From a virus, in the IMG/VR virus record IMGVR_UViG_3300035492_000030, positions 1 through 64,000 of that record: DNA of 64,000 nucleotides; one strand, 5' to 3'. The position numbers were made by a program, and so were the translations under genes. The notes under the pieces were generated by a model. The model saw only the letters and a program-made list of their open reading frames with translations, had not been told where the DNA came from and did no database searches. Positions 3,587-62,413 of the stretch are shown here, one piece after another. Position 1 is the first letter of the stretch, and each line of letters starts with the position of its first letter.

Positions 3587-3847
3587 TTAGTCATCATAAT
3601 TAGTGAGTTCTTTGTACTTTTGAACTACTGCACTTGCTTCACCACTGAACTCTTCAAATTTCTGAGCAACTTCTAGGGCCGCTGCCTTCTGAATTACTTT
3701 GATAGTTTCTTTATCAAACCCTGAGGGATTATGATCTTTGTGGAAAGTGACATCATCTTTAAACTGTTTTAGATCCTGTTTGTTAGTTTCAATTTCAGTC
3801 AGGATGTTTACAAAACGTTCAAACATTTGCTTTTCAGATACATTCAT
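3587..3847 (-). CDS. Hypothetical protein
   Basis: ORF-track 3587..3889. Internal ATG at 3847 has AAGGAG 6 nt upstream, so the shorter 86-aa form is preferred. Confidence 0.5.
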   Translation of the reverse strand: MNVSEKQMFERFVNILTEIETNKQDLKQFKDDVTFHKDHNPSGFDKETIKVIQKAAALEVAQKFEEFSGEASAVVQKYKELTNYDD

Positions 3848-3910
3848 ATTATTCTCCTTGACAAAGCTTTGCATTAGTTTGCGAACCACAAGTGATGATT
3901 GGTTGAAAGG

Positions 3911-4156
3911 TCAATCTAGACGATGAGGGTATTGCCAATAATTCGGATCAACAGGCTTACCAATAACATCTACAGGGCTTTGTTCTGGCTGTCTAACTTT
4001 ATCAAACCAATCTTGTACTTGCTCTTTGACCTTAGTTTCTTTCTTAAAGACAAGCTGAAGATGTTCTTTAATCATCTCCCATTGATCTTCATCTGGGCAC
4101 TTACCTTGAAGTTCAATAAAACCTTGTAACCAATAGCAAAAGGATTGTGCATCCAT
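3911..4156 (-). CDS. Hypothetical protein
   Basis: 81-aa ORF, abuts the next gene (4157). Confidence 0.55.
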   Translation of the reverse strand: MDAQSFCYWLQGFIELQGKCPDEDQWEMIKEHLQLVFKKETKVKEQVQDWFDKVRQPEQSPVDVIGKPVDPNYWQYPHRLD

Positions 4157-4378
4157 TTATACAGCCTCCTCAATTTTAATATACAGATGGAAATCCTTTA
4201 CTTCTTTATCAGAGTCTTCGTAAAAGAATTTCACATCCTTCCAATCACTTTCAACAATCTCTCGATCAAGAGCAAGTTCAACCTTCTTCATGATCGAATT
4301 ACATTCTTGATTACCACCAACATAAGCAAGGAGCTTTCCGATGGTCAGAAGTTCTTTTTCAGTGAAATCAATAAGCAT
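4157..4378 (-). CDS. Hypothetical protein
   Basis: The ORF-track start at 4390 is TTG. The ATG at 4378 is preceded by GGAGGAAACA. Confidence 0.55.
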   Translation of the reverse strand: MLIDFTEKELLTIGKLLAYVGGNQECNSIMKKVELALDREIVESDWKDVKFFYEDSDKEVKDFHLYIKIEEAV

Positions 4379-4433
4379 TGTTTCCTCCAATGAAGCCCTC
4401 CATATTTCAGAAGGGCTTTGAATTTAGTTTAGA

Positions 4434-5273
4434 CTAGAATGGTAGATCTTGGTCGTCAAAGTCTGGCGATGGCTCCTGCTGCTCTACAGGCTTCGGCTGT
4501 GGCTTCGGTTTCTGAGCTGGTTTTGGTTGTTGCTTAGTAGTTCCTTCCTTAGCTTCACCCTTTACATAAGCAGTAACTTCAGGAACAACTTGATCCAGAA
4601 GCATTAGAGCCATTTCCTCAACATCCTCAACATTATCTACTAGTTTACATGCGGTGAGGACAGATTGTCCAGCAGCAGCACCGACATCATATTCACTCAT
4701 GTTTGGATTGGCATCTTTATAAGCTTCCTTCACACGCTCGCTAACATCATGTAGCTGTTTTGCAACTTTAGCAATGTAGTCAAGACTGATATTACTCTCA
4801 CCTTGAATCAGGTTCATAGCAGCATTGATAGCATGACCCACTTGCACGCCAGTCATATCCTTTTTAAAGCCGCCAGAAGCGTTCTGAGAGCCTTGTGGAG
4901 TGCGTTGTTGTGGCTGAGAGGGTTTACCCTCGCCTTTCTTCACAAGCTTAATCTTGCTAGTACCGGAGTTATAATAGATTTTACCATTATACTCGTTCTC
5001 TGTTACAACAAGGCGTACTTCATCACCAACTTCAAGGGTTTGCCAATCTGGTTTTGCGTTGTTACCGTTGTTAAAGCGAATCTGCGGATCATACCCTTCC
5101 TTGGTTTTGATTGAGATGTTACCAACCCAATCACCATCAATCAGAACAGAAGCCCGATGCGTATTACCGAACCGATCATTGACAGCTTCTTTGAACATTA
5201 CACGTTCAACAACACCTTTGATAACAGTGATTTCTTCACCAGTTGCGGGGTTCTCTACCTTTGAAATTGCCAT
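4434..5273 (-). CDS. ssb: Single-stranded DNA-binding protein
   Basis: 279 aa, Gly/Pro/Gln-rich linker, acidic C-terminal tail DFDDQDLPF typical of SSB tips. Sits in the replication module. Confidence 0.7.
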   Translation of the reverse strand: MAISKVENPATGEEITVIKGVVERVMFKEAVNDRFGNTHRASVLIDGDWVGNISIKTKEGYDPQIRFNNGNNAKPDWQTLEVGDEVRLVVTENEYNGKIYYNSGTSKIKLVKKGEGKPSQPQQRTPQGSQNASGGFKKDMTGVQVGHAINAAMNLIQGESNISLDYIAKVAKQLHDVSERVKEAYKDANPNMSEYDVGAAAGQSVLTACKLVDNVEDVEEMALMLLDQVVPEVTAYVKGEAKEGTTKQQPKPAQKPKPQPKPVEQQEPSPDFDDQDLPF

Positions 5274-6100: not shown

Positions 6101-6740
6101 AAGGAATCCTCTCAATCATCCAACCTTTAAATTCTATCTTATTTGTCTTGTATTTAAAAAATTTACTAATACAACCTTTTAATCCGAGTTCAGAAAGCTT
6201 TTTGTAAAGCACAATTTCCTCATAATTATCTTTTCGGATTACATACTTGTATTTAGTTAAAGTCTTACTCATCAATTTGGACTGTTCATCTCTATCTCTA
6301 CGCAACCACGATTCTTTTAACTTTAAACCGTGTGAATCTCTTACACCGTTTTCCCATTCTGTTTTTAATCTTTTTGAGATTTTAATTGATGTATCTGGGT
6401 GTGTAATCATACCACCATCAGAATCATTTCTCAAATTATAACCAAAAGATTTATCGTGCGAATTGAAATAATCCATCCAGAATACTTCTCTTTCCGCAAT
6501 TATATCTTGTTCGCAAATTTCTATTATTCTGAAAATAAAATTTTCATATCCGTACTTCACCATAGATTTTAGCATGTATTCATTTATATGTTTTACAGAT
6601 TTTTTACGGAATCCTGTATTATACTGAGAATTTCTTCTGTAGAAACATTTAGTTCTACCTATATAACATTTACCATTTACGGTATTTGTTATTTTGTAAA
6701 TACCTCCACAATCCTTAAATTTTACATCTATCAATTTCAC
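6087..6740 (-). CDS. GIY-YIG homing endonuclease
   Basis: GIYKITNTVNGKCYIGRTKCFYRRNSQY (GIY...YIG...R) at the N-terminus. The start overlaps the polymerase stop by 4 nt. Confidence 0.8.
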   Translation of the reverse strand: MKLIDVKFKDCGGIYKITNTVNGKCYIGRTKCFYRRNSQYNTGFRKKSVKHINEYMLKSMVKYGYENFIFRIIEICEQDIIAEREVFWMDYFNSHDKSFGYNLRNDSDGGMITHPDTSIKISKRLKTEWENGVRDSHGLKLKESWLRRDRDEQSKLMSKTLTKYKYVIRKDNYEEIVLYKKLSELGLKGCISKFFKYKTNKIEFKGWMIERIPYDAR

Positions 6741-8476: not shown

Positions 8477-9070
8477 TCAGAAGTCAAGTGAATTTTGATT
8501 AAAAGCTAATCCGTGCCTATCTGTATAACCATAACCGCAAGAATTTAACTTTTCAATTTGTTTATTTCTAAATTCAATTGCTAGTTTAAAAGCAGTATCT
8601 TCACCGTATTTATCAATACTGAAATATTTACATTTTTCAATACCGTTTTCCCTCCATCTTGTCATAAAGTATTCATTACCGCAACCGTTATTCATTCTTG
8701 TAACACCTGTCACTCCGGTAGAATTTGTACTCCTTAATTTTTGATTTCTTGAATTAATTTCATTTGTTACAATCCTCAAATTAGACGGGTTATTGTTATT
8801 TTTATTACCATCAATATGGTCAATTTGATAGTTTCCATCTAAATCGTTTTCGGAATTTAAACAGTATATTATTCTATGAACCTTATAAGATTTACCAAAT
8901 AACTTTACATCGTAATAACCTGAATGGTGAAGAAATCCAGCATCGTCACCAGCTTTAAATTTAGTATTATTAGATATTTTTCTTTTCAACCAAGTTTTAG
9001 ATTCACTATCTATATAAAAATATTTTGACATTTCATCAAATGAAATTTTATTGTATTTCATTATTATCAC
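8477..9070 (-). CDS. HNH homing endonuclease with AP2-like DNA-binding domain
   Basis: IDHIDGNKNNNNPSNLRIVTNEINSRN (HNH_3-type), then STGVTGVTR...W...AFKLAIEFR (AP2-like). Free-standing between the primase-helicase and polymerase genes. Confidence 0.8.
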   Translation of the reverse strand: MIIMKYNKISFDEMSKYFYIDSESKTWLKRKISNNTKFKAGDDAGFLHHSGYYDVKLFGKSYKVHRIIYCLNSENDLDGNYQIDHIDGNKNNNNPSNLRIVTNEINSRNQKLRSTNSTGVTGVTRMNNGCGNEYFMTRWRENGIEKCKYFSIDKYGEDTAFKLAIEFRNKQIEKLNSCGYGYTDRHGLAFNQNSLDF

Positions 9071-9077
9071 CTACATT

Positions 9078-10835
9078 TTAAAAATCAACAACCATATCTT
9101 GAGATTGCTCATAATTTTTTTGGTCATGTTCATCAACAGTAGCGTAAGGATTCGCTGTTGCAAACATATGAGTTGTTGCGTGGTCATATTTTAACCATCC
9201 AGCTTCACCTGTGTTACCAGTACGACGACACTTGACAAGCTGCACCTTAGTGGCTGAACGCTTCACGGGATCGCTGTTCATCTTGTCCCGACTAATCAAG
9301 ATCGTGTTAAACGCAATTTGATTAATGCTAGAGCTACCCATAAGGTCATATTCACTGACAGCGTGTGGATCTTCCCCAGAAGGTTTACGCATGTGCGATA
9401 CAGCAATTACACTAGTATCGGTCTGCTTTGCAAACTTCAGCAGAGTGTCCATGAACTCAATAATTGCACCGTTGTCACTGCTATTAACACCCGCTTGAAC
9501 GGGATCAATGATAATTACATCACAACCCTCGGCTTTTGCGAGATAATTTAGCTTATCAAAAATCTCAGCAGTTGAGATACTACCCTGATGGTCAACGTAA
9601 ACGAATTGATCTTTCTTAGCAAGCCCCTCAAAGAATCGACGTTTCAGAGAATCAATATCAACCATGTTTCGATCAGCAGTACGCAGATTCACACCAGCAT
9701 CAAGCGACACAAGGTCACGAACAACCTCACGCTTAGTACCTTCAAGATACATTGCACCAACTTTGAACTTAGTGTTCTCAATTAAGTTATAAACAATGTT
9801 ATTAACAATCGAAGATTTGCCAATCGACGTAAGTGCCCCGATGACCGTGATTTCGCCCTTTTCGATACCCCCGTTCATCATCTCGTTTAGATGACTCCAA
9901 GCAGCAGGGAACGGAATTTTTACATTATCATCTTCATTTTCAAAATCTTCCCACATTTGGGATAGGTGCAGAATATCCACACGACTAAAAGGAACAGCCT
10001 TCCAAAAGATTTGCTTTAGTTCGCTAACACGATTCATCCGAAGAAGATCGCAAGCGTCCTTAACATCTGCTGGGAATTTAGCAATAAATGCTTTACCCGG
10101 AGAAATCAGGCGCGCGGCTTCCTCAATATAACGTTGTCCGCTTTCATCATTGTCAAAGGCAAGAATGACTTTTTCAAAGCTGTTAATGTATTCAAAATTA
10201 GCTTTGAATTGTTTGATAATACTACCGTCGCCACAAGTTACGCTAACACAAGGAGTCCAATATTCAACCTTATTACCATCTTTGTCGGTTTGTTCACTGT
10301 AAAGAACCTGAGAAAAAGCCATCGCATCTTCTTCACCCGTGGTGATTACTAGATACTTTTGACCTTTCTCAAATACAGCTTGACCAAACATTTCATTAGT
10401 AGCTTTTACACTACCAATTGCAGCAAAGTCCTTAGTTGCAATAATTCGTTTCTTATAACCTACAATCTTACCGTCTACAGTGGACGGATAGAATCGAGTA
10501 GTTGCCTCATCTTCACCTTGAATCTCAGTGCGGACACCATACTTGCGAGAAGTAATGCGAGTAATAGCGCGAGCCTTCCAACCTCGGAACTGAATCTTTT
10601 CAATATCAGAGAAGTCTACAACTTGATTTTGTTTACTTACTACTTCCACCATTTTTACTCCTGCTTCCTCTACTTTTTCAGGATTAAAATACTTATTACA
10701 AGAGAAACAAAAGGCATCAATTATATTTCCGTCATCTGTTTCTTTAGAGTATACAGCCATTGCATCAGAGCTATCACACTCGATGCAGCTTGCATGATAC
10801 ATCAGTTCACCATTATTTTCTTCGTATTTACTCAA
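9078..10835 (-). CDS. Bifunctional primase-helicase (T7 gp4-like)
   Basis: Zn finger CIECDS...CFSCNKY. TOPRIM TTGEEDAMAF / AFDNDESG. Walker A GALTSIGKSS. Walker B VIIIDPV. Confidence 0.85.
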   Translation of the reverse strand: MSKYEENNGELMYHASCIECDSSDAMAVYSKETDDGNIIDAFCFSCNKYFNPEKVEEAGVKMVEVVSKQNQVVDFSDIEKIQFRGWKARAITRITSRKYGVRTEIQGEDEATTRFYPSTVDGKIVGYKKRIIATKDFAAIGSVKATNEMFGQAVFEKGQKYLVITTGEEDAMAFSQVLYSEQTDKDGNKVEYWTPCVSVTCGDGSIIKQFKANFEYINSFEKVILAFDNDESGQRYIEEAARLISPGKAFIAKFPADVKDACDLLRMNRVSELKQIFWKAVPFSRVDILHLSQMWEDFENEDDNVKIPFPAAWSHLNEMMNGGIEKGEITVIGALTSIGKSSIVNNIVYNLIENTKFKVGAMYLEGTKREVVRDLVSLDAGVNLRTADRNMVDIDSLKRRFFEGLAKKDQFVYVDHQGSISTAEIFDKLNYLAKAEGCDVIIIDPVQAGVNSSDNGAIIEFMDTLLKFAKQTDTSVIAVSHMRKPSGEDPHAVSEYDLMGSSSINQIAFNTILISRDKMNSDPVKRSATKVQLVKCRRTGNTGEAGWLKYDHATTHMFATANPYATVDEHDQKNYEQSQDMVVDF

Positions 10836-11510: not shown

Positions 11511-11931
11511 CGTAATGCAGAAAAAGCATTGCTCGGGGTTGGATGGGGTCAGAAATGCAACGTGCGTCCAATCTTTAAAGCTCACAAGGGAGTTGACACA
11601 AAGCAGAGTCTAGTCGAAAGAATCGGGACTCGTCAACGGGGCTGTAAGGGCCTATAAAAGCGATTCAAGAGGGTAGTCTTACCAAGACCCTCCTTGGCTG
11701 TCAGGCGTACCTGTGCGTATTGGCAGAGCCTAGAAAGGCTGTTGTTCTCGTCTCAAGTTTGGATGGCACATTTGTGCTTGACACAGGAAGAGAGTGAGGA
11801 TAACCTAAGCGTGACCTCAATCTCAGTCTAGGCTAAGAGTGTGCTCTTGGTATGGCTGGGATTAGGGGTAATCTCGCTTGGATTATCCGAACTCAGTTTG
11901 GATGGGTATTACATTTGATACAGGATTAGAA
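11511..11931 (+). ncRNA. Long structured untranslated leader / candidate ncRNA upstream of a small HNH gene
   Basis: About 420 nt with no ORF >=60 aa on either strand, visibly more GC-rich than its flanks, many hairpins (e.g. GAGGGTAGTCTT-acca-AAGACCCTC), and AGTTTGGATGG...ACATTTG repeated at 11756 and 11895. Confidence 0.45.
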
Positions 11932-12306
11932 ATGAGTAAGAAGAAAGATTTAGATGAGATATATGCAGACACTTGGAACAGACGAGACTTGATGTTAAAC
12001 GGCATTACTTACAACGAATACCTAAAGACAGACCATTGGAAATCTACGAAGCTAAAAGCACTGAAAAGACCTAACTACAAGAAATGTGAATTCTGTGATT
12101 GTCAAAAGATAGAATTGCATCACACAAGCTATAAACATTTGTTTGACAAAAGAGAGCTTTGCAATATAATTGCTCTTTGTAGGTTGCATCACCAAGAAGT
12201 ACATGACTACGCAAAACATACCGGATTCTCTGTTAGGGTTGCAACAAATCACTTGAGAAGAAAATACAAACCGGATTATACTAAAAAGAACAGGGTGCAA
12301 AATTAA
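11932..12306 (+). CDS. Small HNH endonuclease
   Basis: 124 aa from the ATG at 11932 (the ORF-track start at 11878 is TTG). CEFCDC...ELHHTSY...CRLHHQEVH is a Cys/His HNH layout. Confidence 0.65.
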   Translation: MSKKKDLDEIYADTWNRRDLMLNGITYNEYLKTDHWKSTKLKALKRPNYKKCEFCDCQKIELHHTSYKHLFDKRELCNIIALCRLHHQEVHDYAKHTGFSVRVATNHLRRKYKPDYTKKNRVQN

Positions 12307-12488
12307 TGAAGATTAAGCTTAGAAAGAATTACAAATTCATTGGTGGCCACTTGTTCAAAAATGTATCACATCTTAAAGAGTATGAAGTAGTTGACAAATG
12401 GTGTGTATCGAAGTACATTATCGATGACTCAGGGCAACGAATCTGTGTGAGTAACTCAGCATTCAAGAAATATTTCAAGGAGGTTTGA
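12306..12488 (+). CDS. Hypothetical protein
   Basis: 60-aa ORF with TAATG stop/start overlap with the upstream gene. Confidence 0.5.
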   Translation: MKIKLRKNYKFIGGHLFKNVSHLKEYEVVDKWCVSKYIIDDSGQRICVSNSAFKKYFKEV

Positions 12489-12489
12489 T

Positions 12490-12660
12490 ATGAAAGTATA
12501 TGAATTAATTGAAGTATTGAAGGAGATGGACCCACAAGCTGTTGTGGAATGTCTAGAAGACAGCTACTATATGTCATTCTCTGAAATAACCAAAGTAAAA
12601 CAAGAAGTTTTTGACATTGATGAAGATGGTAATTCAATTAATAAGGTGTTCATTCTATGA
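12490..12660 (+). CDS. Small hypothetical protein (56 aa), MKxxELIxxLKE family
   Basis: Below the ORF-track cutoff. AAGGAGG RBS. ATGA overlap with the next gene. Paralog-like to 27947..28177 and 37054..37233. Confidence 0.5.
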   Translation: MKVYELIEVLKEMDPQAVVECLEDSYYMSFSEITKVKQEVFDIDEDGNSINKVFIL

Positions 12661-39093: not shown

Positions 39094-39171
39094 GCCGATG
39101 TAGCATAGATGGATATGCACTAACCTTGTAAGTTAGATCAGGTGGGATCGTTACCTTCACCATCGGCACCA
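39094..39171 (+). tRNA. tRNA-like gene, anticodon UGU (Thr), non-canonical T-arm
   Basis: Acceptor GCCGATG/CATCGGC 7/7 bp. D-arm GCAT-AGATGGAT-ATGC. Anticodon arm CTAAC-CTTGTAA-GTTAG. Discriminator A plus encoded CCA. The T-arm GTGGG/TTCAC has two G-U pairs and a 9-nt loop. Confidence 0.45.
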
Positions 39172-52026: not shown

Positions 52027-52830
52027 ATGCAAGATAAAGAAGCTACATTTTATCTCTATAAAATAACAAATAAAGTGAATAATAAAGTTTATATTGGGGT
52101 TACTAAAAATCCAAAACTCCGGCATAGACAACATATGACAAAACTCTCTGTTAAAAATCTTGTTGCTAAGGCAGTTAAAAAGTACGGGAAAGAGAATTTT
52201 GAATTTGAAGTTTTATGTATTGGCACTAAAGAGTATATATGCTCGTTGGAACAAAAGGCCATTGAAGTCTATAACTCAAATGCCGTCACAGGCCACGGTT
52301 ACAACATTGCCTCTGGTGGTTATGGCGGAAGCCTTCCACGACGAGGAAAGGTCAGTTCAAGAAAAGATGATAAGTCAGTGTATGTTTCTGGGTTTTGGTT
52401 TCCTAATAAGAGAACTGCTTTACTTACGTTGAACTGGACTAACTCAAAATTTCGATACAGACGCGACATGGGGTTTCTTGGTGAAACTTTTATTCAAACC
52501 AGAGTAGAGCTACCTAACAGAAATACAATAACCTCTGTACCGATTTATTATAAAGGATTTTGGTTTTCTGGTATAAACAAAGCATGTGAAGTGTACAACA
52601 TGAACTCAGAGGCAATAAAGAAAGATATAAGAAATCGTCGTTTTGAACAATCCGATGAAATTCAAAATTTTAATATTGCAAGAAAATATCTGGTGCATGG
52701 TAAACCTTACACAACACTGAAAGATGCTTCACAGGATCTTGATATTCCTATCACGACCCTAAAAGGGAGATATGATAGAAAGAAAGATACTATTAATTAT
52801 TCATATACATACATTAAAGAGGATGTATAA
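52027..52830 (+). CDS. GIY-YIG homing endonuclease
   Basis: FYLYKITNKVNNKVYIGVTKNPKLRHRQH. Paralog of 54190..55047 (shared VSGFWFPNKRTA block). Confidence 0.8.
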   Translation: MQDKEATFYLYKITNKVNNKVYIGVTKNPKLRHRQHMTKLSVKNLVAKAVKKYGKENFEFEVLCIGTKEYICSLEQKAIEVYNSNAVTGHGYNIASGGYGGSLPRRGKVSSRKDDKSVYVSGFWFPNKRTALLTLNWTNSKFRYRRDMGFLGETFIQTRVELPNRNTITSVPIYYKGFWFSGINKACEVYNMNSEAIKKDIRNRRFEQSDEIQNFNIARKYLVHGKPYTTLKDASQDLDIPITTLKGRYDRKKDTINYSYTYIKEDV

Positions 52831-54123
52831 ATGTCAGAACTTGACTCAATTATTTCTATTCAAATCACCCGAGAGACAACTCCAGTTTCAGTTGCATCTT
52901 TCCAAATCCCCCTAATTCTTTCACAGCACACTAATTTCTCTGAGCGTTATCGTGTATACACCGATATTGATGCCGTTGCTGATGATTTCGATTCTACCGA
53001 CAAAGCATATGTTATTGCTCAGAAGATTTTTGGTCAATCAGGTGCTCGCGTTCCATCCATTGTAATTGGTCGTCGCCAAGTAGATGAAGTTGATGGCAGC
53101 ATTGCAACTGTTTCTAACAACACTGCATACGCTGTAACAATCAACGACACCGCTTTCAGTTTTACTTCTGACGGTACTGCACTTGCTACTGAAATCGTCG
53201 CTGGCCTGAAAGCTGCATTCGATGCTGCACCTATCGCTGGAATCACTTTTACTGACAACCTTGATGGTACTTTCTCTGTTGCTGTGACTACCCCAGGCAC
53301 TGCTTGGAGTATTACCAGCTCCGCTAACGTCACCCTTGCTCATGTTGCTCCAACTGAAACTTGGGTTGAAGCTCTTGATGCTGTAACCAATGTAAATGAC
53401 ACTTGGTATGCTCTTGTTGCCGAAACTCATGTACAAGCTGATGTAGAAGCTCTTGCTGCTGCGATTCAATCTCGTCGTAAGATCTATGGTACATCCACTC
53501 AAGACGCAACTGTGCCTACTTCTGGTACTACTGATATTGCATATGTTCTTGATGCTCAGAACTACGGTCGTACATTCGTTGTATATCTGCCTACCGCAGA
53601 TACTCAGTATCCTGAAGCAGCTTGGATTGGTAGCCAACTTGCCTACACTCCGGGCAGCAACGATTGGGACTTCAAACGTGGCACTGGTGTTACGGTGAGT
53701 GGTCTTACTGACTCTCAGCGTGCCTTCCTGCGCGGTAAAAACTGCAATATGTTCACCACTGTTGCTGGCGTCGATATCTTCCAAGATGGTAATATGGCAG
53801 ATGGTCGCCCAATTGACGAGCAAATTATTGTAGACTGGACTTATGCTCGTCTACAAGAATCTATTTTCTTCCGTCTAATCAATAGCCTGAAGATCCCGAT
53901 GACTCAGGCAGGGCTTGTCATTGTAGAAAATGAGATTCGTTCTGTTCTGGCACAAGGTGAAGCCAACGGTGCATTTGATCGTGGTTGGTCAGTACAAACT
54001 CCGAATGTTCTAGACATTCCAGCTAACCTTCGCGCTCAGCGTACAGCAGGTACTTTCGTATTCCGTGCTCGTCTTGCCGGTTCGATCCGTCGCATTGTAA
54101 TCGAAGGGTTTTTGTCGGTATAA
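52831..54123 (+). CDS. Tail sheath protein (DUF3383-type)
   Basis: 430-aa ORF upstream of the tube genes, high-expression codon usage. Assigned by position, size and recalled family resemblance. Confidence 0.6.
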   Translation: MSELDSIISIQITRETTPVSVASFQIPLILSQHTNFSERYRVYTDIDAVADDFDSTDKAYVIAQKIFGQSGARVPSIVIGRRQVDEVDGSIATVSNNTAYAVTINDTAFSFTSDGTALATEIVAGLKAAFDAAPIAGITFTDNLDGTFSVAVTTPGTAWSITSSANVTLAHVAPTETWVEALDAVTNVNDTWYALVAETHVQADVEALAAAIQSRRKIYGTSTQDATVPTSGTTDIAYVLDAQNYGRTFVVYLPTADTQYPEAAWIGSQLAYTPGSNDWDFKRGTGVTVSGLTDSQRAFLRGKNCNMFTTVAGVDIFQDGNMADGRPIDEQIIVDWTYARLQESIFFRLINSLKIPMTQAGLVIVENEIRSVLAQGEANGAFDRGWSVQTPNVLDIPANLRAQRTAGTFVFRARLAGSIRRIVIEGFLSV

Positions 54124-54189: not shown

Positions 54190-55047
54190 ATGTCAGAGAT
54201 CAAGGAAACACCCTACTACTTGTATAAGATTACCAATAATGTGAATGGTAAGTTGTATATTGGAATAACTAAAAATCCAAAAGCCAGAAAGCGCCAGCAT
54301 TGGAACTTTGAAAGAAAGTTTAATGGTAAAACTATCAATATTTTATACCAAGCCATGCGAAAATATGGTTTGGAGAATTTTGATTTTGAAGTAATCTGTA
54401 TTGGAAATAAAGACTATATTCTTGACCTAGAAGTGAAAGCTATCTCTGCTTACCGAACTACAGAAAAGAAATTTGTATATAACATTAAACCGGGTGGTGA
54501 GAGTGGTCGTGGTTACACTGTAACTGATACTCCGAGAGATGTTCCTGTTTTTGTTTCTGGGTTTTGGTTTCCTAATAGAAGGACGGCAGTTAAAAAGCTA
54601 AACATAACTGTTGCAGTCTATAAGAATAGGCAAAGATCTGGCACTCTTGGAGATGTTTGCAGGAAAGTAGAAAGAAACAATATTAGATGTAAAGTTCTCA
54701 ATGCTAACAAATATAAGTCATGTTATGTTGGAGGATTTTGGTTCCCTGATCTAGAAACGGCCATTGAGAAACTAAATAGGCCAGAATCTACACTCAGAGC
54801 CAGAATTAGGAAGGGTTTAGTGAATGCTGAGCCTAATAAAAGAATTCCTCATAATAAAGGAAAGAAATCACCCATACATGATAGTAACCATCCAAGTGCA
54901 AAACCTGTTTATGTAGAAGGTGTAGTTTATGGTTGCATAAAAGAAGCAACATCTGCTACTGGTTATTCAAAATATATTATTACAAATAGAATTAAAGAAT
55001 GTCATCCAGACTTCAAATTTATTAAAGAGGAATTAAATAGTGGCTAG
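54190..55047 (+). CDS. GIY-YIG homing endonuclease
   Basis: YYLYKITNNVNGKLYIGITKNPKARKRQH, with GFWFP repeats. Confidence 0.8.
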   Translation: MSEIKETPYYLYKITNNVNGKLYIGITKNPKARKRQHWNFERKFNGKTINILYQAMRKYGLENFDFEVICIGNKDYILDLEVKAISAYRTTEKKFVYNIKPGGESGRGYTVTDTPRDVPVFVSGFWFPNRRTAVKKLNITVAVYKNRQRSGTLGDVCRKVERNNIRCKVLNANKYKSCYVGGFWFPDLETAIEKLNRPESTLRARIRKGLVNAEPNKRIPHNKGKKSPIHDSNHPSAKPVYVEGVVYGCIKEATSATGYSKYIITNRIKECHPDFKFIKEELNSG

Positions 55048-57226: not shown

Positions 57227-59245
57227 ATGGCAGCAGGTGGAGCCGTCACGCGCTATTTTGCTACGTTAGGGTTCAAAGTAGATAAGAGTGAACTTGCTAA
57301 TATTGACCGCACGTTATCTAATATCGAAAAGAAGCTAAGAGCTTTTGGTAAGAATATTGATAAACACCTTAACATCACTTTGAAAGTTGATAAGGTGGAT
57401 ATTGATAAGAATAAAATGAGAGCTGCTGTAGGCAACACTCTCGACTGGATTAGCAAGAATACAGTATTTGAAGTAAGCAGATTCGCAGTAAATGACAGAG
57501 CACTACAGGCTGCACTAACCAGAGCTAACAGATTGGCAAATGGTAGGATGCGTCAAACCACTCCTGCCACGCAACCAACTGTTAATCCACAAGTTGCCCC
57601 TGCTCAACAAACAAGACCAACAAGAGCTGAAGCAAGTTACTCTAGGGCCAACTACCTTCACGCTGGTGGAGCAGCAGGAGCTTTTGCTCGTTATGGTGCA
57701 GCAAGCCTCCCTTTCGTTGGTGGTGTGTATGGTCTTACCACGTTAAACCAGAATATTCAAGAGCTACAATCAACTGAGATTGCAGCAGGTAGTATCTTTG
57801 GAGACAGAGCACAAGAAGCTCAAAAATGGCTAGAACAACAGGCAGACTATGTAGGTTTTAACTACATGGAAACAATGCCAATCTTCAGTTCATTCATGGC
57901 TTCCGGTATGCCTTTGATGGGCTATGACCAATCTAAAGGTGTATTCCAGTCATTAACAGAATTTGGCCGTACTCGTGGTGCTGATGCCGTTAGTATGAAG
58001 CGTGCCATGTATGCAATTCAGCAGATGGCAGCTAAAGGTCAAGTGATGACCGAGGAATTGAAAAACCAGCTGTCAGAGGCAAAAGGTTTTGGTGAATCTC
58101 GTCAAATCTTCGCTGAAGCGTATCAAATTCAAACAGGTGGTAGTCTCACTGGTCAAGAAGCCTCTGCTGCACTTATTGACGCCATGCAAAAAGGCCAAGT
58201 TAAGTCGGCAGACATTCTACCAATTGTTGCTAGACTTATGTCAGAAAGGGCTGCCGGTGGTTTGGAGGCTGCTAGAACTAGCCTCACAGCAGAGCAGATG
58301 CGTTTCCAGAATGAACAGACAAGACAGCTCAGAGCTTTCACTGAAGCTGGTGGTAGTAGTGGTTTTGCTAGACTATTCAGATCAATGACTGTTGCATTGA
58401 AAGAAGGTCAGCCTCTTATTGAAGGTATGGCTCGTGCTTTTGATGAAATGAGTAAGTATGCTGCATTTGTATTCCAACTTCCACAATCCTTTAAAAGAGC
58501 TTTTGAAGGGAGAGATAGTTGGGTTGCAGATATGATGGGTGAGGCTAACGTTCAAATTGCTAAAGATTTCTATGAAGGATTAAAAGAACTTGCTGGCGCC
58601 ATTAAAGAGACTCTAGGCATTGCGTTGGATGGATGGAAGCTCATTTTTGAAACATTTGGGGATGATTTCTTAGGTTTTATCGTAACAATTAAAGATGTCC
58701 TTCTCTATTCATTTAAGATTATCAATTCTGCGATTAAAGGTGATTTAGACGCAGCTAGCAGATTTAGTGATGCTATGTTTGCCAGTATGATGGGTGCTGA
58801 TGCTGAAACAGTAAAAGCGATTGCAGAAGGCAAACCAACCCCTGCAATGCAGAATGCTGGCAATGTTAATCCTATGCAAATGGCAGTCGGTGCGCTTACT
58901 GGCCTACAAAATCTTCCAAGGGCTGAAGGGCTAATGGAAGTCTTTACTAGGGCTGGTGCTGGTTTTGATTATCAGAGGCAATATGACAAGGCTCGCAACA
59001 TTGCTGTAAATGATCCCACATCTGTCTATTACATGAACCCAAAAGGTTTTGATCTAGATGCACAACATTCTTTCAGAGCTGCAATGGATTCTAATTACAC
59101 CCCAGACCAAGGAACAGGTCTTGCCCCTACTGAGATTAATGTTACTGTACAGGCTGTTCCGGGTAGGGAGGTTGATGCAGAAGCTACTGGTAATGTCATC
59201 GCAACCAAGATTAAAGAAGCTCTACAATTCTTCACAGAAAAATAA
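57227..59245 (+). CDS. Tape measure protein
   Basis: 672 aa. MKRAMYAIQQMAAKGQVMTEELKNQLSEA matches the tape-measure N-terminal domain signature. Position after the chaperone. Confidence 0.75.
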   Translation: MAAGGAVTRYFATLGFKVDKSELANIDRTLSNIEKKLRAFGKNIDKHLNITLKVDKVDIDKNKMRAAVGNTLDWISKNTVFEVSRFAVNDRALQAALTRANRLANGRMRQTTPATQPTVNPQVAPAQQTRPTRAEASYSRANYLHAGGAAGAFARYGAASLPFVGGVYGLTTLNQNIQELQSTEIAAGSIFGDRAQEAQKWLEQQADYVGFNYMETMPIFSSFMASGMPLMGYDQSKGVFQSLTEFGRTRGADAVSMKRAMYAIQQMAAKGQVMTEELKNQLSEAKGFGESRQIFAEAYQIQTGGSLTGQEASAALIDAMQKGQVKSADILPIVARLMSERAAGGLEAARTSLTAEQMRFQNEQTRQLRAFTEAGGSSGFARLFRSMTVALKEGQPLIEGMARAFDEMSKYAAFVFQLPQSFKRAFEGRDSWVADMMGEANVQIAKDFYEGLKELAGAIKETLGIALDGWKLIFETFGDDFLGFIVTIKDVLLYSFKIINSAIKGDLDAASRFSDAMFASMMGADAETVKAIAEGKPTPAMQNAGNVNPMQMAVGALTGLQNLPRAEGLMEVFTRAGAGFDYQRQYDKARNIAVNDPTSVYYMNPKGFDLDAQHSFRAAMDSNYTPDQGTGLAPTEINVTVQAVPGREVDAEATGNVIATKIKEALQFFTEK

Positions 59246-60439: not shown

Positions 60440-60783
60440 ATGGTAGACTTAGTACAAAAGGATAGAATTTACGAACTGAAGGTTGGTGACACGTCTACAG
60501 GGAACGGTCTGCTCATTACGAACAATCTTCAAATCAGTTTTGATGTTAGTAAATCTAGCAGTAACAAAGACCGCACCAATTCAGCCACAATCGAAATCGT
60601 GAATCTCAGTGATGAAAGCTTAAAGCTGATTGACGTAGATTATCCCTTTGCTTCTTTGAGCGCGGGTTATCGTGCTATTGGATTGAAGCAACTTATTTCT
60701 GGGCAAGTAACTGATGTTTCTACCAGAAAGAACGGCACGGACAGAATCACGCAGTTGACTATCGGAAGTGCTTATACAAAGCT
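60440..60783 (+). CDS. Baseplate hub-like protein, exon 1
   Basis: The ORF reads to a stop at 60791, but a td-like intron begins after T60783. See the intron entry. Confidence 0.6.
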
Positions 60784-60853
60784 TAAAATTTAGGCTCTTT
60801 TAACAGTAATGTTAATCGAAAATTCTCTAATTGCCGGAAACTCCTGCTAGGTG

Positions 60854-60883
60854 TTGACTACCGAGATATTATAGTGATATAAT
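60854..60883 (+). promoter_or_regulatory. sigma70-type promoter inside the intron, upstream of the HNH ORF
   Basis: TTGACT-18-TATAAT. Confidence 0.55.
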
Positions 60884-60984
60884 ATACTCACGTAATGTAA
60901 TGGTTACGGTGTGGTAAAAACGTCAACAATAGGGACAATCGGCAGCTAAAAATCTTGTCCTTGAATACCAGTAGAGGAAATCTT

Positions 60985-61704
60985 ATGTCTGAATCTGAAG
61001 TAATAAAATTTGAAAAACTATACAAAATTTTACCGGACTTTCCAAACTACGCTGTAACGGAAGATGGTGAAGTTTTAAATGTGAAAACGGGGAAAATTAT
61101 TTCTCAATTTCTTTGTGGAATTCCTCCATATTATTCAGTAAATTTTACTATAAATGGAAAGAGCAAGCAACAGAGGGTGCATCGAGTGGTTGCGATGGCT
61201 TGGTTAGTCAACGATGACCCTGAAAATAAAATTCAGGTAAACCATAAAGACGGAAACAAGCTAAACAACCATGTAGATAATCTTGAATGGTGCACTCCAT
61301 CTCAAAATCAACAACATGCCATTTCCACAGAGCTAAAGAATTCAAGTTACAAAATGCAAAATGCCTCATTGACCGAGGCCCAAGCCCATAGTATTTGTCA
61401 GTTACTTATGGATGGTTGGACAACTAAAGATGTTGCTGTTAAATTTGAAATTCCTAGATCAACAGTTTTAAAAATTAGGTGTGGTGATGTTTATAAGGAT
61501 ATTAGAAGTCTATATGACATACCAACCAATAAAAAATATAATCTATCTGAACAAACAGTAAGATGGGTTTGTGAACAAATTATTAACGGGTTTAGTGATA
61601 GTGCCATTGCCGATATGGCTAATAATAAAGCAATTACTACAATCATGGTTAAGAAGATTAGATATAAGATTAGGTTTAAAAGTATATCTTCTGAGTACTT
61701 TTAA
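60985..61704 (+). CDS. Intron-encoded HNH homing endonuclease
   Basis: 239 aa from the ATG at 60985 (AGAGGA RBS). VNHKDGNKLNNHVDNLEWCTPSQNQQHA. N-terminal NUMOD4-like YAVTEDGEVLN. Confidence 0.8.
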   Translation: MSESEVIKFEKLYKILPDFPNYAVTEDGEVLNVKTGKIISQFLCGIPPYYSVNFTINGKSKQQRVHRVVAMAWLVNDDPENKIQVNHKDGNKLNNHVDNLEWCTPSQNQQHAISTELKNSSYKMQNASLTEAQAHSICQLLMDGWTTKDVAVKFEIPRSTVLKIRCGDVYKDIRSLYDIPTNKKYNLSEQTVRWVCEQIINGFSDSAIADMANNKAITTIMVKKIRYKIRFKSISSEYF

Positions 61705-61866
61705 CCAAGATATAAGTTCAACGACTAGTCGAAAGACGTACACCCAAGTGGGTGGAAATGGGAATCTCCTCGAACTGAGGATGAAGATATAGTCTGATCT
61801 GCATGGAGACATGCAGCAGCTTGAATAAAGCGGGGGAGGCGTAACGACCCTCCCTGAACACTAATG

Positions 61867-62413
61867 TAATCACGAGCTAATTTCAAAGACACTTCCTCCG
61901 GGTAAAGCTAGAGATGCTTTTGAAGAGCTGGCTAAACAGATTGGTGTTAGTAGAACTGTTTTTAATAGTGTAAATCTTGAAAGTCCGATCATCAATGGTT
62001 ATCCCCTGTCTGGAACAAAGCGTGAAATGCTTGACGAATTGTCAGAGAAGTATAGCGTTGACTGGCAGATTGATGACGATACACTGTATGTTCATGACTC
62101 TGACCGTGGTAACTCTGAAAAGTTTGAATTAGCTTATGTAGTGTCAAAGTATACAGGGTTGGTTGACAACGCTTACAGAACTTCAGGTGATGTCAGGCGA
62201 TCTGAAAAAGATAAAGTCAAGAAACCCAGTATCCAATTCAAAATGATGTTGAATCCGGATATTGTTGCCGGATCTATTATCAAACTGGACGACACCTTAA
62301 TTAAAGGTTGGATTAAAGTTGATTCACTCAGGCATTGGGGTGGTTGGAGAGATACACCGTGGTATACGGAAGTACAAGGGTCAATGATTGAGAAGGTGGT
62401 GAATAATGGCTAG
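61867..62413 (+). CDS. Baseplate hub-like protein, exon 2
   Basis: The frame is open from 61865 with no start codon until 62027. It continues exon 1 in phase (junction codon CT|T). Confidence 0.6.

Follow-up and report, generated by a model that had tools for sequence, protein, structure and literature searches.

A probable mobile group I intron with a T4 td-like core in the baseplate-hub gene of an uncultured phage

How does a phage encode one tail protein in two reading frames that lie on either side of an endonuclease gene? The question is raised by positions 60,784 to 61,866 of the IMG/VR virus record IMGVR_UViG_3300035492_000030, of which we analyzed positions 1 to 64,000 (64,000 nucleotides (nt), referred to hereafter as the window). 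A preliminary description, made from the letters alone, took this segment for a td-like group I intron carrying an HNH endonuclease within a baseplate hub-like gene. We conclude with high confidence that the segment is a mobile group I intron with an IA2/T4 td-like core, inserted in phase 2 of the Leu115 codon of the baseplate-hub gene; the intron, its exons and its endonuclease gene all lie on the plus strand.

Reading frames and host gene

Exon 1 of the hub gene (60440..60783) opens with the ATG at 60440 and supplies codons 1–114 plus the two first bases of Leu115; on unspliced RNA its frame would continue 8 nt into the intron, to an in-frame TAG (60791..60793), giving 117 residues only. Exon 2 (61867..62413) extends from the third base of Leu115 to the stop at 62411–62413; its frame is open from 61865, its head has no start codon, and the first ATG is at 62027. 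Joining 60783 to 61867 removes 1,083 nt (60784..61866) and leaves 344 + 547 = 891 nt, i.e., 296 codons plus stop. Our recomputation agreed with the preliminary description on this sum, on the stop of the first frame at 60791 and on the second open frame (61865–62413), and the strings it gave for the 5′ start (TAAAATTTAGGC at 60784) and the 3′ end (CTGAACACTAATG at 61854–61866) are each present once. Because TAA begins both the intron and exon 2, four cut positions yield an identical mRNA; 60783/60784 with 61866/61867 is the sole pair that leaves the 5′ splice site preceded by U and the intron terminated by G (slashes mark cut or insertion sites here and below). The predicted exon joint brings ...ACAAAGCT to TAATCACGAG, with the predicted peptide …GSAYTKLNHELISK… across Leu115.

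Do homologues of this locus consist of one gene or two? They are single genes, uninterrupted across the junction, an outcome by which this refuting condition of the preliminary description speaks for the intron. Exon 1 aligns to residues 1–115, and exon 2 to residues 116–296, of intron-less homologues from a large protein database (P0001–P0007; 296 amino acids (aa), 85–91% identity, 100% coverage), and their alignment passes ...AYTKL/NHELISK without a gap, N116 and H117 being invariant. Among GenBank phages, 333 of 335 tblastn matches span at least 80% of the spliced product in one piece, the best of them from Pseudomonas phage vB_PsaM_M1 (48.9% identity, residues 4–285). In a contig of 82 kb from a related phage (L001), the gene order is the same and the hub gene is uninterrupted (encoding P0001; 80% nucleotide identity); the sequence AAGCTAAATCA stands there in place of the intron (allele at 10330–10360).

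By its family matches the host gene is a baseplate hub, as the preliminary description had proposed. The spliced product matches PHROG 196 “baseplate hub” (2.9e-58, residues 6–289) and Pfam PF22759 (E217_GP41 hub; 32.6 bits against a cut-off of 27), and a profile of its homologues matches solved hub chains in the PDB along their entire length, with residues 5–291 aligned (9zd7 gp85 at 6e-80, Phi92 gp137, and the Pam3 hub gp19). The surrounding genes run in the order tape measure, Dit-like, Pam3 gp18-like plug, hub, gpV-like spike, and wedge.

Ribozyme fold

The sequence between the exons contains a complete conserved group I core (P3–P4–P6, P7–P3′–P8, the P3/P7 pseudoknot, and the P, Q, R, and S motifs in order), whose helices we placed by hand and from the Rfam alignment. 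P1 (helix 1; 60780–86/60790–96, 7 bp in the Rfam alignment) pairs the four last exon bases and the three first intron bases with the internal guide UUAGGCU, and contains the splice-site wobble pair U60783·G60793. The 5′ ribozyme half (60800..60957), traced by mapped pairs and pair counts, comprises P2 (60800–04/60811–15), the 5′ strand of P3 (60822–27, pairing with 61760–65), P4 (60832–37/60939–44), P5 (60842–45/60931–34), a three-way P5a/b/c extension (60853–60927), and the 5′ strands of P6 (60945–46, with 61716–17) and P6a (60952–57, with 61706–11). The 3′ half (61706..61866) adds P7 (61723–27/61790–94), P7.1 (61728–37, with a GAAA loop), P7.2 (61741–54), P8 (61767–81), P9 (61799–816), P9.1 (61819–31), P9.2 (61834–54), and the terminal G at 61866 that forms the intron's 3′ end. 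Two extra helices, P7.1 and P7.2, separate P7 from the 3′ strand of P3, a subgroup IA2 trait that has the same layout in T4 td. The core strings listed in the preliminary description were all found, each in a single copy in the region: P, AATTGCCGGAAACTCC (60829); Q, AATCGGCAGC (60937); R, GTTCAACGACTAGTC (61716); S, AAGATATAGTC (61784); the hairpin CTGCATGGAGACATGCAG (61799–61816); and GGGGGAGG (61832) with CCCTCCC (61848).

Two lines of evidence bear on this fold. Run in E-value mode, the Rfam family Intron_gpI (RF00028) matches the 3′ half at 61640–61816 (49.0 bits, E = 4e-11) and the 5′ half at 60774–61000 (29.4 bits, E = 3e-5), and these are the sole intron matches within the 64 kb. For covariation, the 5′ and 3′ intron parts of seven sequences (the hub and tape-measure introns described below) were joined and aligned with MAFFT, which misplaced a few loop-proximal columns, and the pairs of the window-derived structure were counted. 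Standard pairs occupy 92.7% of cells, against 39–50% when partners are slid by 1–3 columns, and compensatory changes on both sides are seen in 41 of 102 pairs; because the structure was drawn from one of the seven, the percentage paired is inflated, an effect that leaves the compensatory counts untouched. None of 500 shuffles matched the observed pairing, compensatory counts or covariation score. Read with the same inflation in mind, pairing is 100% in P1, P4, P6, P7, and P7.1, 97% in P3, and 91% in P7.2. Compensatory changes occur in P1, P2, P3, P4, P5a, P5b, P5c, P7.1 (two of three pairs), P7.2 (four of five), P8, P9, P9.1, and P9.2, whereas P6, P6a, and P7 are invariant and so neither support nor contradict the fold. 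The P1 change is a single A–U to G–C replacement between exon and guide, the splice-site U·G being kept in 7/7 sequences, and the terminal G is kept in 6/6 complete introns.

In the mechanism that we propose, the tail-gene transcript would fold into the ribozyme, and an external guanosine would attack after U60783, held in its U·G pair with the internal guide. The freed exon 1 would then attack after G61866, with the initial UAA of exon 2 positioned on the guide to form P10 (as read from the sequence, this UAA can pair with U60790–A60792). The exons would join into an mRNA coding for the full 296-aa hub, and on unspliced RNA the TAG 8 nt into the intron would stop ribosomes.

The HNH endonuclease gene

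The loop of P6a holds an intact open reading frame (ORF) of 720 nt (60985..61704, 239 aa), the 3′ strand of P6a beginning directly after its stop codon. Its earlier assignment as an HNH endonuclease is borne out by Pfam HNH_3 (PF13392; 31.0 bits, cut-off 24.8, E 2e-7), PHROG 59 (1.9e-48), and I-HmuI (1U3E; E = 2.8e-11 over residues 21–130, with the HKDGNK...N...W motif aligned), which is the sole solved relative. An N-terminal NUMOD4 match (PF07463) is weak (17.7 bits, below the 23.4 cut-off), as are helix-turn-helix matches in the C-terminal region. A database entry (P0121) is identical to this protein, and relatives of it reach 80%, 63%, 61%, and 60% identity.

The ORF has its own GAGGA 6 nt 5′ of the ATG, and this Shine-Dalgarno sequence is paired in a hairpin, P6b (helix 14; UCCUU/GAGGA, 60958..60978 with strands 60958–62/60974–78), which is 92.9% paired and has two pairs changed on both sides; P6b may thereby gate translation of the endonuclease. 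The product presumably nicks or cuts intron-less hub alleles of co-infecting relatives, whose repair would copy the intron in (homing).

Related introns and mobility

The locus recurs. L003, a contig from a second sample (SRR11791770), matches the window without a difference across 4,854 nt, and four other diverged metagenomic phages (L004, L005, L006, and L010/L011) carry the same intron and HNH gene at the same codon position of the hub gene, with insertion site xxG CT/T AAY CAY. In these orthologous loci the HNH gene lies between a hub exon 1 of 116–125 aa and hub exon 2, the preceding order (tape measure, Dit, plug, hub) is kept, and the HNH proteins are 60–80% identical to that of the window. 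Presence is patchy: hub genes whose products are 85–91% identical to that of the window are uninterrupted (confirmed at the DNA level for L001), and the intron is present in L004 (84% over exon 1) and in more distant phages (56–64%). This distribution among close relatives fits gain and loss by homing. We judged co-conversion signatures in the exon flanks by eye and saw nothing clear.

Sister introns with related HNH genes (54%, 48%, and ~40% identity) split a different gene, that of the tape measure, at EEL/KGQ in related phages: L007 (2813–3805), L008 (2821–3974; also L009), and L032 (~4005–5142). They share with the hub intron both the guide sequence UUAGGCUC and the P5 extension. The tape-measure site (GAAGAGCT/TAAAGG) resembles the hub site: ACA RAG CT/T AAY CAY in the hub and GAA GAG CT/W AAA GGC in the tape measure have GAGCT/TAA in common. 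The tape-measure gene of the window itself is intact at this position (GAG GAA TTG AAA, 58052–58063). Taken together, the sequences suggest that the intron may have moved between the hub and tape-measure genes through a similar target.

Searches of IMG/VR for loci related to the spliced hub protein found none, and a scan of IMG/VR with a P7′–P9 pattern returned 52 loci, none of them in a hub gene; L032, and possibly L036, lies in a tape-measure gene. As a separate observation, an unrelated metagenomic contig (L065, JACCDK010766601.1) has another intron that carries the identical P3–J3/4–P4 string AAATTCTCTAATTGCTGGAAACTCC at 1265–1289; it is the sole match to this string in JGI metagenome contigs, and its host gene matches none of our hub, HNH or tape-measure queries from the window.

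Alternative explanations of the locus

Four points weigh against an active, mobile intron. At the Rfam gathering threshold (50 bits), a search of the whole window does not call the intron, the better half reaching 49.0 bits; the two halves are scored separately, each below 50, because the 720-nt ORF in P6a blocks a single alignment. An Rfam check put forward in the preliminary description has a divided outcome, with both halves matched in E-value mode and nothing at the gathering threshold. The covariation test has seven sequences only, one of which supplied the structure. JGI metagenome contigs, which are mostly DNA assemblies, gave 0 matches when searched for the exact sequence of the spliced junction. 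Lastly, HNH divergence roughly tracks hub divergence, which makes long vertical residence with occasional loss as likely as recent homing.

Could the hub gene be truly split, a free-standing HNH gene having been inserted, with its two halves produced as separate chains that come together without RNA splicing? In all these contigs the annotation from gene callers shows a 117-aa ORF followed by an HNH gene, and the window has several free-standing endonuclease genes, as this explanation would have it. We nevertheless find it very improbable: the head of exon 2 has neither start codon nor ribosome-binding site (the first ATG lies 160 nt downstream), the exon boundaries restore the frame exactly, and the flanks of the ORF form a complete, covarying group I core that a free-standing gene would not need.

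The same low standing goes to the idea that the intron is a decayed, non-splicing remnant in a broken hub gene of a defective or assembly-chimeric genome. An Rfam score just below threshold is what a remnant might give, but the identical 4,854 nt were assembled independently from SRR11791770, all core helices and the HNH ORF are intact, and the hub, a tail protein, is essential and single-copy. Selection on the fold is moreover indicated by compensatory changes in four additional phages. Two other classes of insert fall at once: an intein is ruled out by in-frame stops from 8 nt into the insert onward, and a group II intron because neither a reverse-transcriptase ORF nor domain V was seen and all of the group I core is there. 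That the hub gene contains a group I intron which works, or did so until recently, is an assignment drawn from sequence that we consider very likely correct.

Comparison with known introns

A close known system is the self-splicing T4 td intron (IA2, encoding I-TevI), and the parallel that the preliminary description drew with it holds, its strings being correct when checked against NC_000866 (td 5′ end GGGT/TAATTGAGGCC; td 3′ end GAGATATAGTCTGCTCTGCATGGTGACATGCAGC...CTGAACATAATG/). Both introns begin with UAA and have a U·G pair in P1. P7 is identical (GACUA/UAGUC; ACGACUA), the R and S motifs differ by one or two bases (S being GAGAUAUAGUC in td and AAGAUAUAGUC in the window), and P7.1 and P7.2 follow P7 in both, with an AAGU loop in P7.2. 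The P9 stem is likewise identical (CUGCAUG/CAUGCAG), P9.1 and P9.2 follow with UAACGAC in the loop, the intron tail UGAACAUAAUG (also UGAACAnUAAUG) is shared, and both place an endonuclease ORF in the P6a loop. The td-like label stands on the P1 U·G pair, the terminal G, the series P3 to P9 with P7.1/P7.2, and covariation.

The two introns differ in host gene (tail structural here, thymidylate synthase in td), in endonuclease type (I-HmuI-like HNH here, GIY-YIG in td), and in the 5′ half, where the window intron has a ~85-nt P5a/b/c extension not found in td and where no sequence similarity exists beyond the P4 and P6 motifs. A local alignment does relate the P5b hairpin of the window (60863–60889, GUGA loop) to the td P2 hairpin GAGUAUAAG-GUGA-CUUAUACUU, perhaps through chance or a shuffled module.

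The SPO1/SP82 DNA-polymerase introns (I-HmuI/I-HmuII) offer a second comparison, being phage group I introns in an essential gene that encode a homologous HNH protein; I-HmuI is the nicking homing endonuclease of the SPO1 polymerase intron. They differ from the window intron in host gene and phage lineage, and the C-terminal DNA-binding region of the window HNH protein does not align to I-HmuI.

At the DNA level, 969 phage records contain relatives of the 3′ half. The 3′ core is matched most closely by DNA-polymerase and terminase introns of Schitoviridae, Litunavirus, Autographiviridae, and V5-like phages, all in other host genes, and the P7–P9 half is the sole part that can be aligned to them; in Acinetobacter phage nACB1 (78.6% identity over 90% of the 3′ core), an intron with an HNH gene splits the DNA polymerase gene. 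A “distant” blastn search with the 5′ half of the intron gave just two weak matches. In megablast against GenBank phages, just ~85 nt of intron core (61716–61800) within the 24.5-kb structural module (39500–64000) finds matches, and these are in other introns; the phage is otherwise without a GenBank match at megablast level (roughly ≥85% identity) across this module.

Introns in virion genes have precedents. Group I introns are reported in tape-measure, tail-tube, and terminase genes of Bacillus cereus-group prophages (PMC2504315), in capsid and minor-tail genes of Cluster J mycobacteriophages, with splicing shown by reverse-transcription PCR (PMC3706429), and in many essential genes of Jug phages (PMC12880540). 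As in the Bacillus cereus-group and Cluster J phages, related introns here occupy different sites or genes (hub and tape measure). In contrast to those cases, the present lineage has an unrelated, E217-type tail module, the baseplate hub is not among the host genes named there, and splicing, demonstrated in Cluster J, is here inferred from sequence. A limited, non-exhaustive full-text literature search found no earlier report of a group I intron in a baseplate-hub gene; given the documented tail and capsid gene introns (PMC2504315, PMC3706429), the preliminary description's view of such an intron as unusual overstated the rarity.

The promoter-like motif

How the endonuclease would be expressed is a question of its own, raised by a sigma-70-like motif, TTGACT-N18-(TGa)TATAAT, at 60854..60883. 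The preliminary description had rightly noticed the motif and placed the ORF in the P6 loop (more exactly, P6a), but the motif belongs to the P5a/P5b extension and not to P6, as it overlaps the 5′ strand of P5a and the 3′ strand of P5b. It matches 11 of 12 consensus positions, with a TG upstream, and lies ~100 nt 5′ of the HNH ATG. The pattern TTGAnT-N17/18-TGnTAnnnT is kept in 8/8 related introns, and the stem between the hexamers covaries.

We incline to the view that the motif is a by-product of RNA structure, the endonuclease being translated from tail-operon pre-mRNA or from excised intron under gating by P6b. P5a, P5b, and P6b are all backed by pairing and compensatory changes, and a GAGGA of its own precedes the ATG of the ORF by 6 nt. 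Since the P5a helix and the UA-GUGA-UA tetraloop constrain the RNA, both hexamers could persist without promoter function: TTGAC is the P5a 5′ strand, and UAGUGAUA is a GNRA-type tetraloop plus its closing pairs (helices 7 and 9). Two details fit this explanation poorly, namely that the last T of the −10-like hexamer is kept even where no pairing was found by eye (L005), and that a spacing of 17–18 nt in 8/8 introns would be a tight coincidence.

It is also possible, if short of probable, that the motif is a working sigma-70-type promoter from which the endonuclease is made independently of tail-gene transcription. The match to 11 of 12 consensus positions with an extended −10 TG argues for this, as does the retention of motif, spacing, and ~100-nt distance to the ATG in 8/8 introns while the surrounding stem covaries. 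In T4, I-TevI is expressed from promoters within the td intron. Apart from the structural constraint on both hexamers, the sigma-70 consensus may not be the host's, and a transcript from the motif would still carry the P6b hairpin that pairs the Shine-Dalgarno sequence.

Other features of the window

The window seems rich in endonuclease genes. Two GIY-YIG-type endonuclease-like ORFs (52027–52830 and 54190–55047) flank the tail-sheath gene (52831–54123); the second has a confirmed Pfam GIY-YIG match, the first was found by tblastn with the GIY-YIG protein of L001, and each is probably a homing endonuclease of the free-standing kind. With a GIY-YIG and an HNH protein from related contigs as queries, tblastn gave further weak matches at ~6318–6701 (−) and ~8660–8890 (−). 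Mobile genes vary between close relatives: L001 has its own GIY-YIG gene after the sheath gene (3712–4398, +), and between its spike and sheath-initiator genes, on the opposite strand, a CapR-domain ORF (11650–12621, −) where the window has none. A tRNA match (RF00005, 38.5 bits, family cut-off 29) lies at 39094–39168 (+); it appears in E-value mode and is unlisted in gathering mode.

Implications

A broader proposal can be made, which we consider unlikely as a whole: that one intron lineage, with one guide and one HNH family, colonized both hub and tape measure via GAGCT/TAA by reverse splicing or endonuclease retargeting, and carries a promoter within the P5 extension of its ribozyme. Were this so, a single stretch would be DNA promoter and structured RNA at once; and were both parts true, these phages would offer a natural system for intron site-jumping and possibly for splicing control of baseplate assembly.

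Our understanding of how group I introns work is left unchanged by this locus, which would extend their known range among virion genes to the baseplate hub. The seven hub and tape-measure intron sequences form a compact comparative set, rich in covariation, for the study of site-switching and of HNH target evolution. In every contig examined, gene callers break the hub gene up, reporting a “hypothetical” protein of 117 aa, an HNH gene and, left as an orphan, a C-terminal piece; recognizing the intron would correct the annotation of this gene for a whole clade of uncultured E217-type myoviruses.

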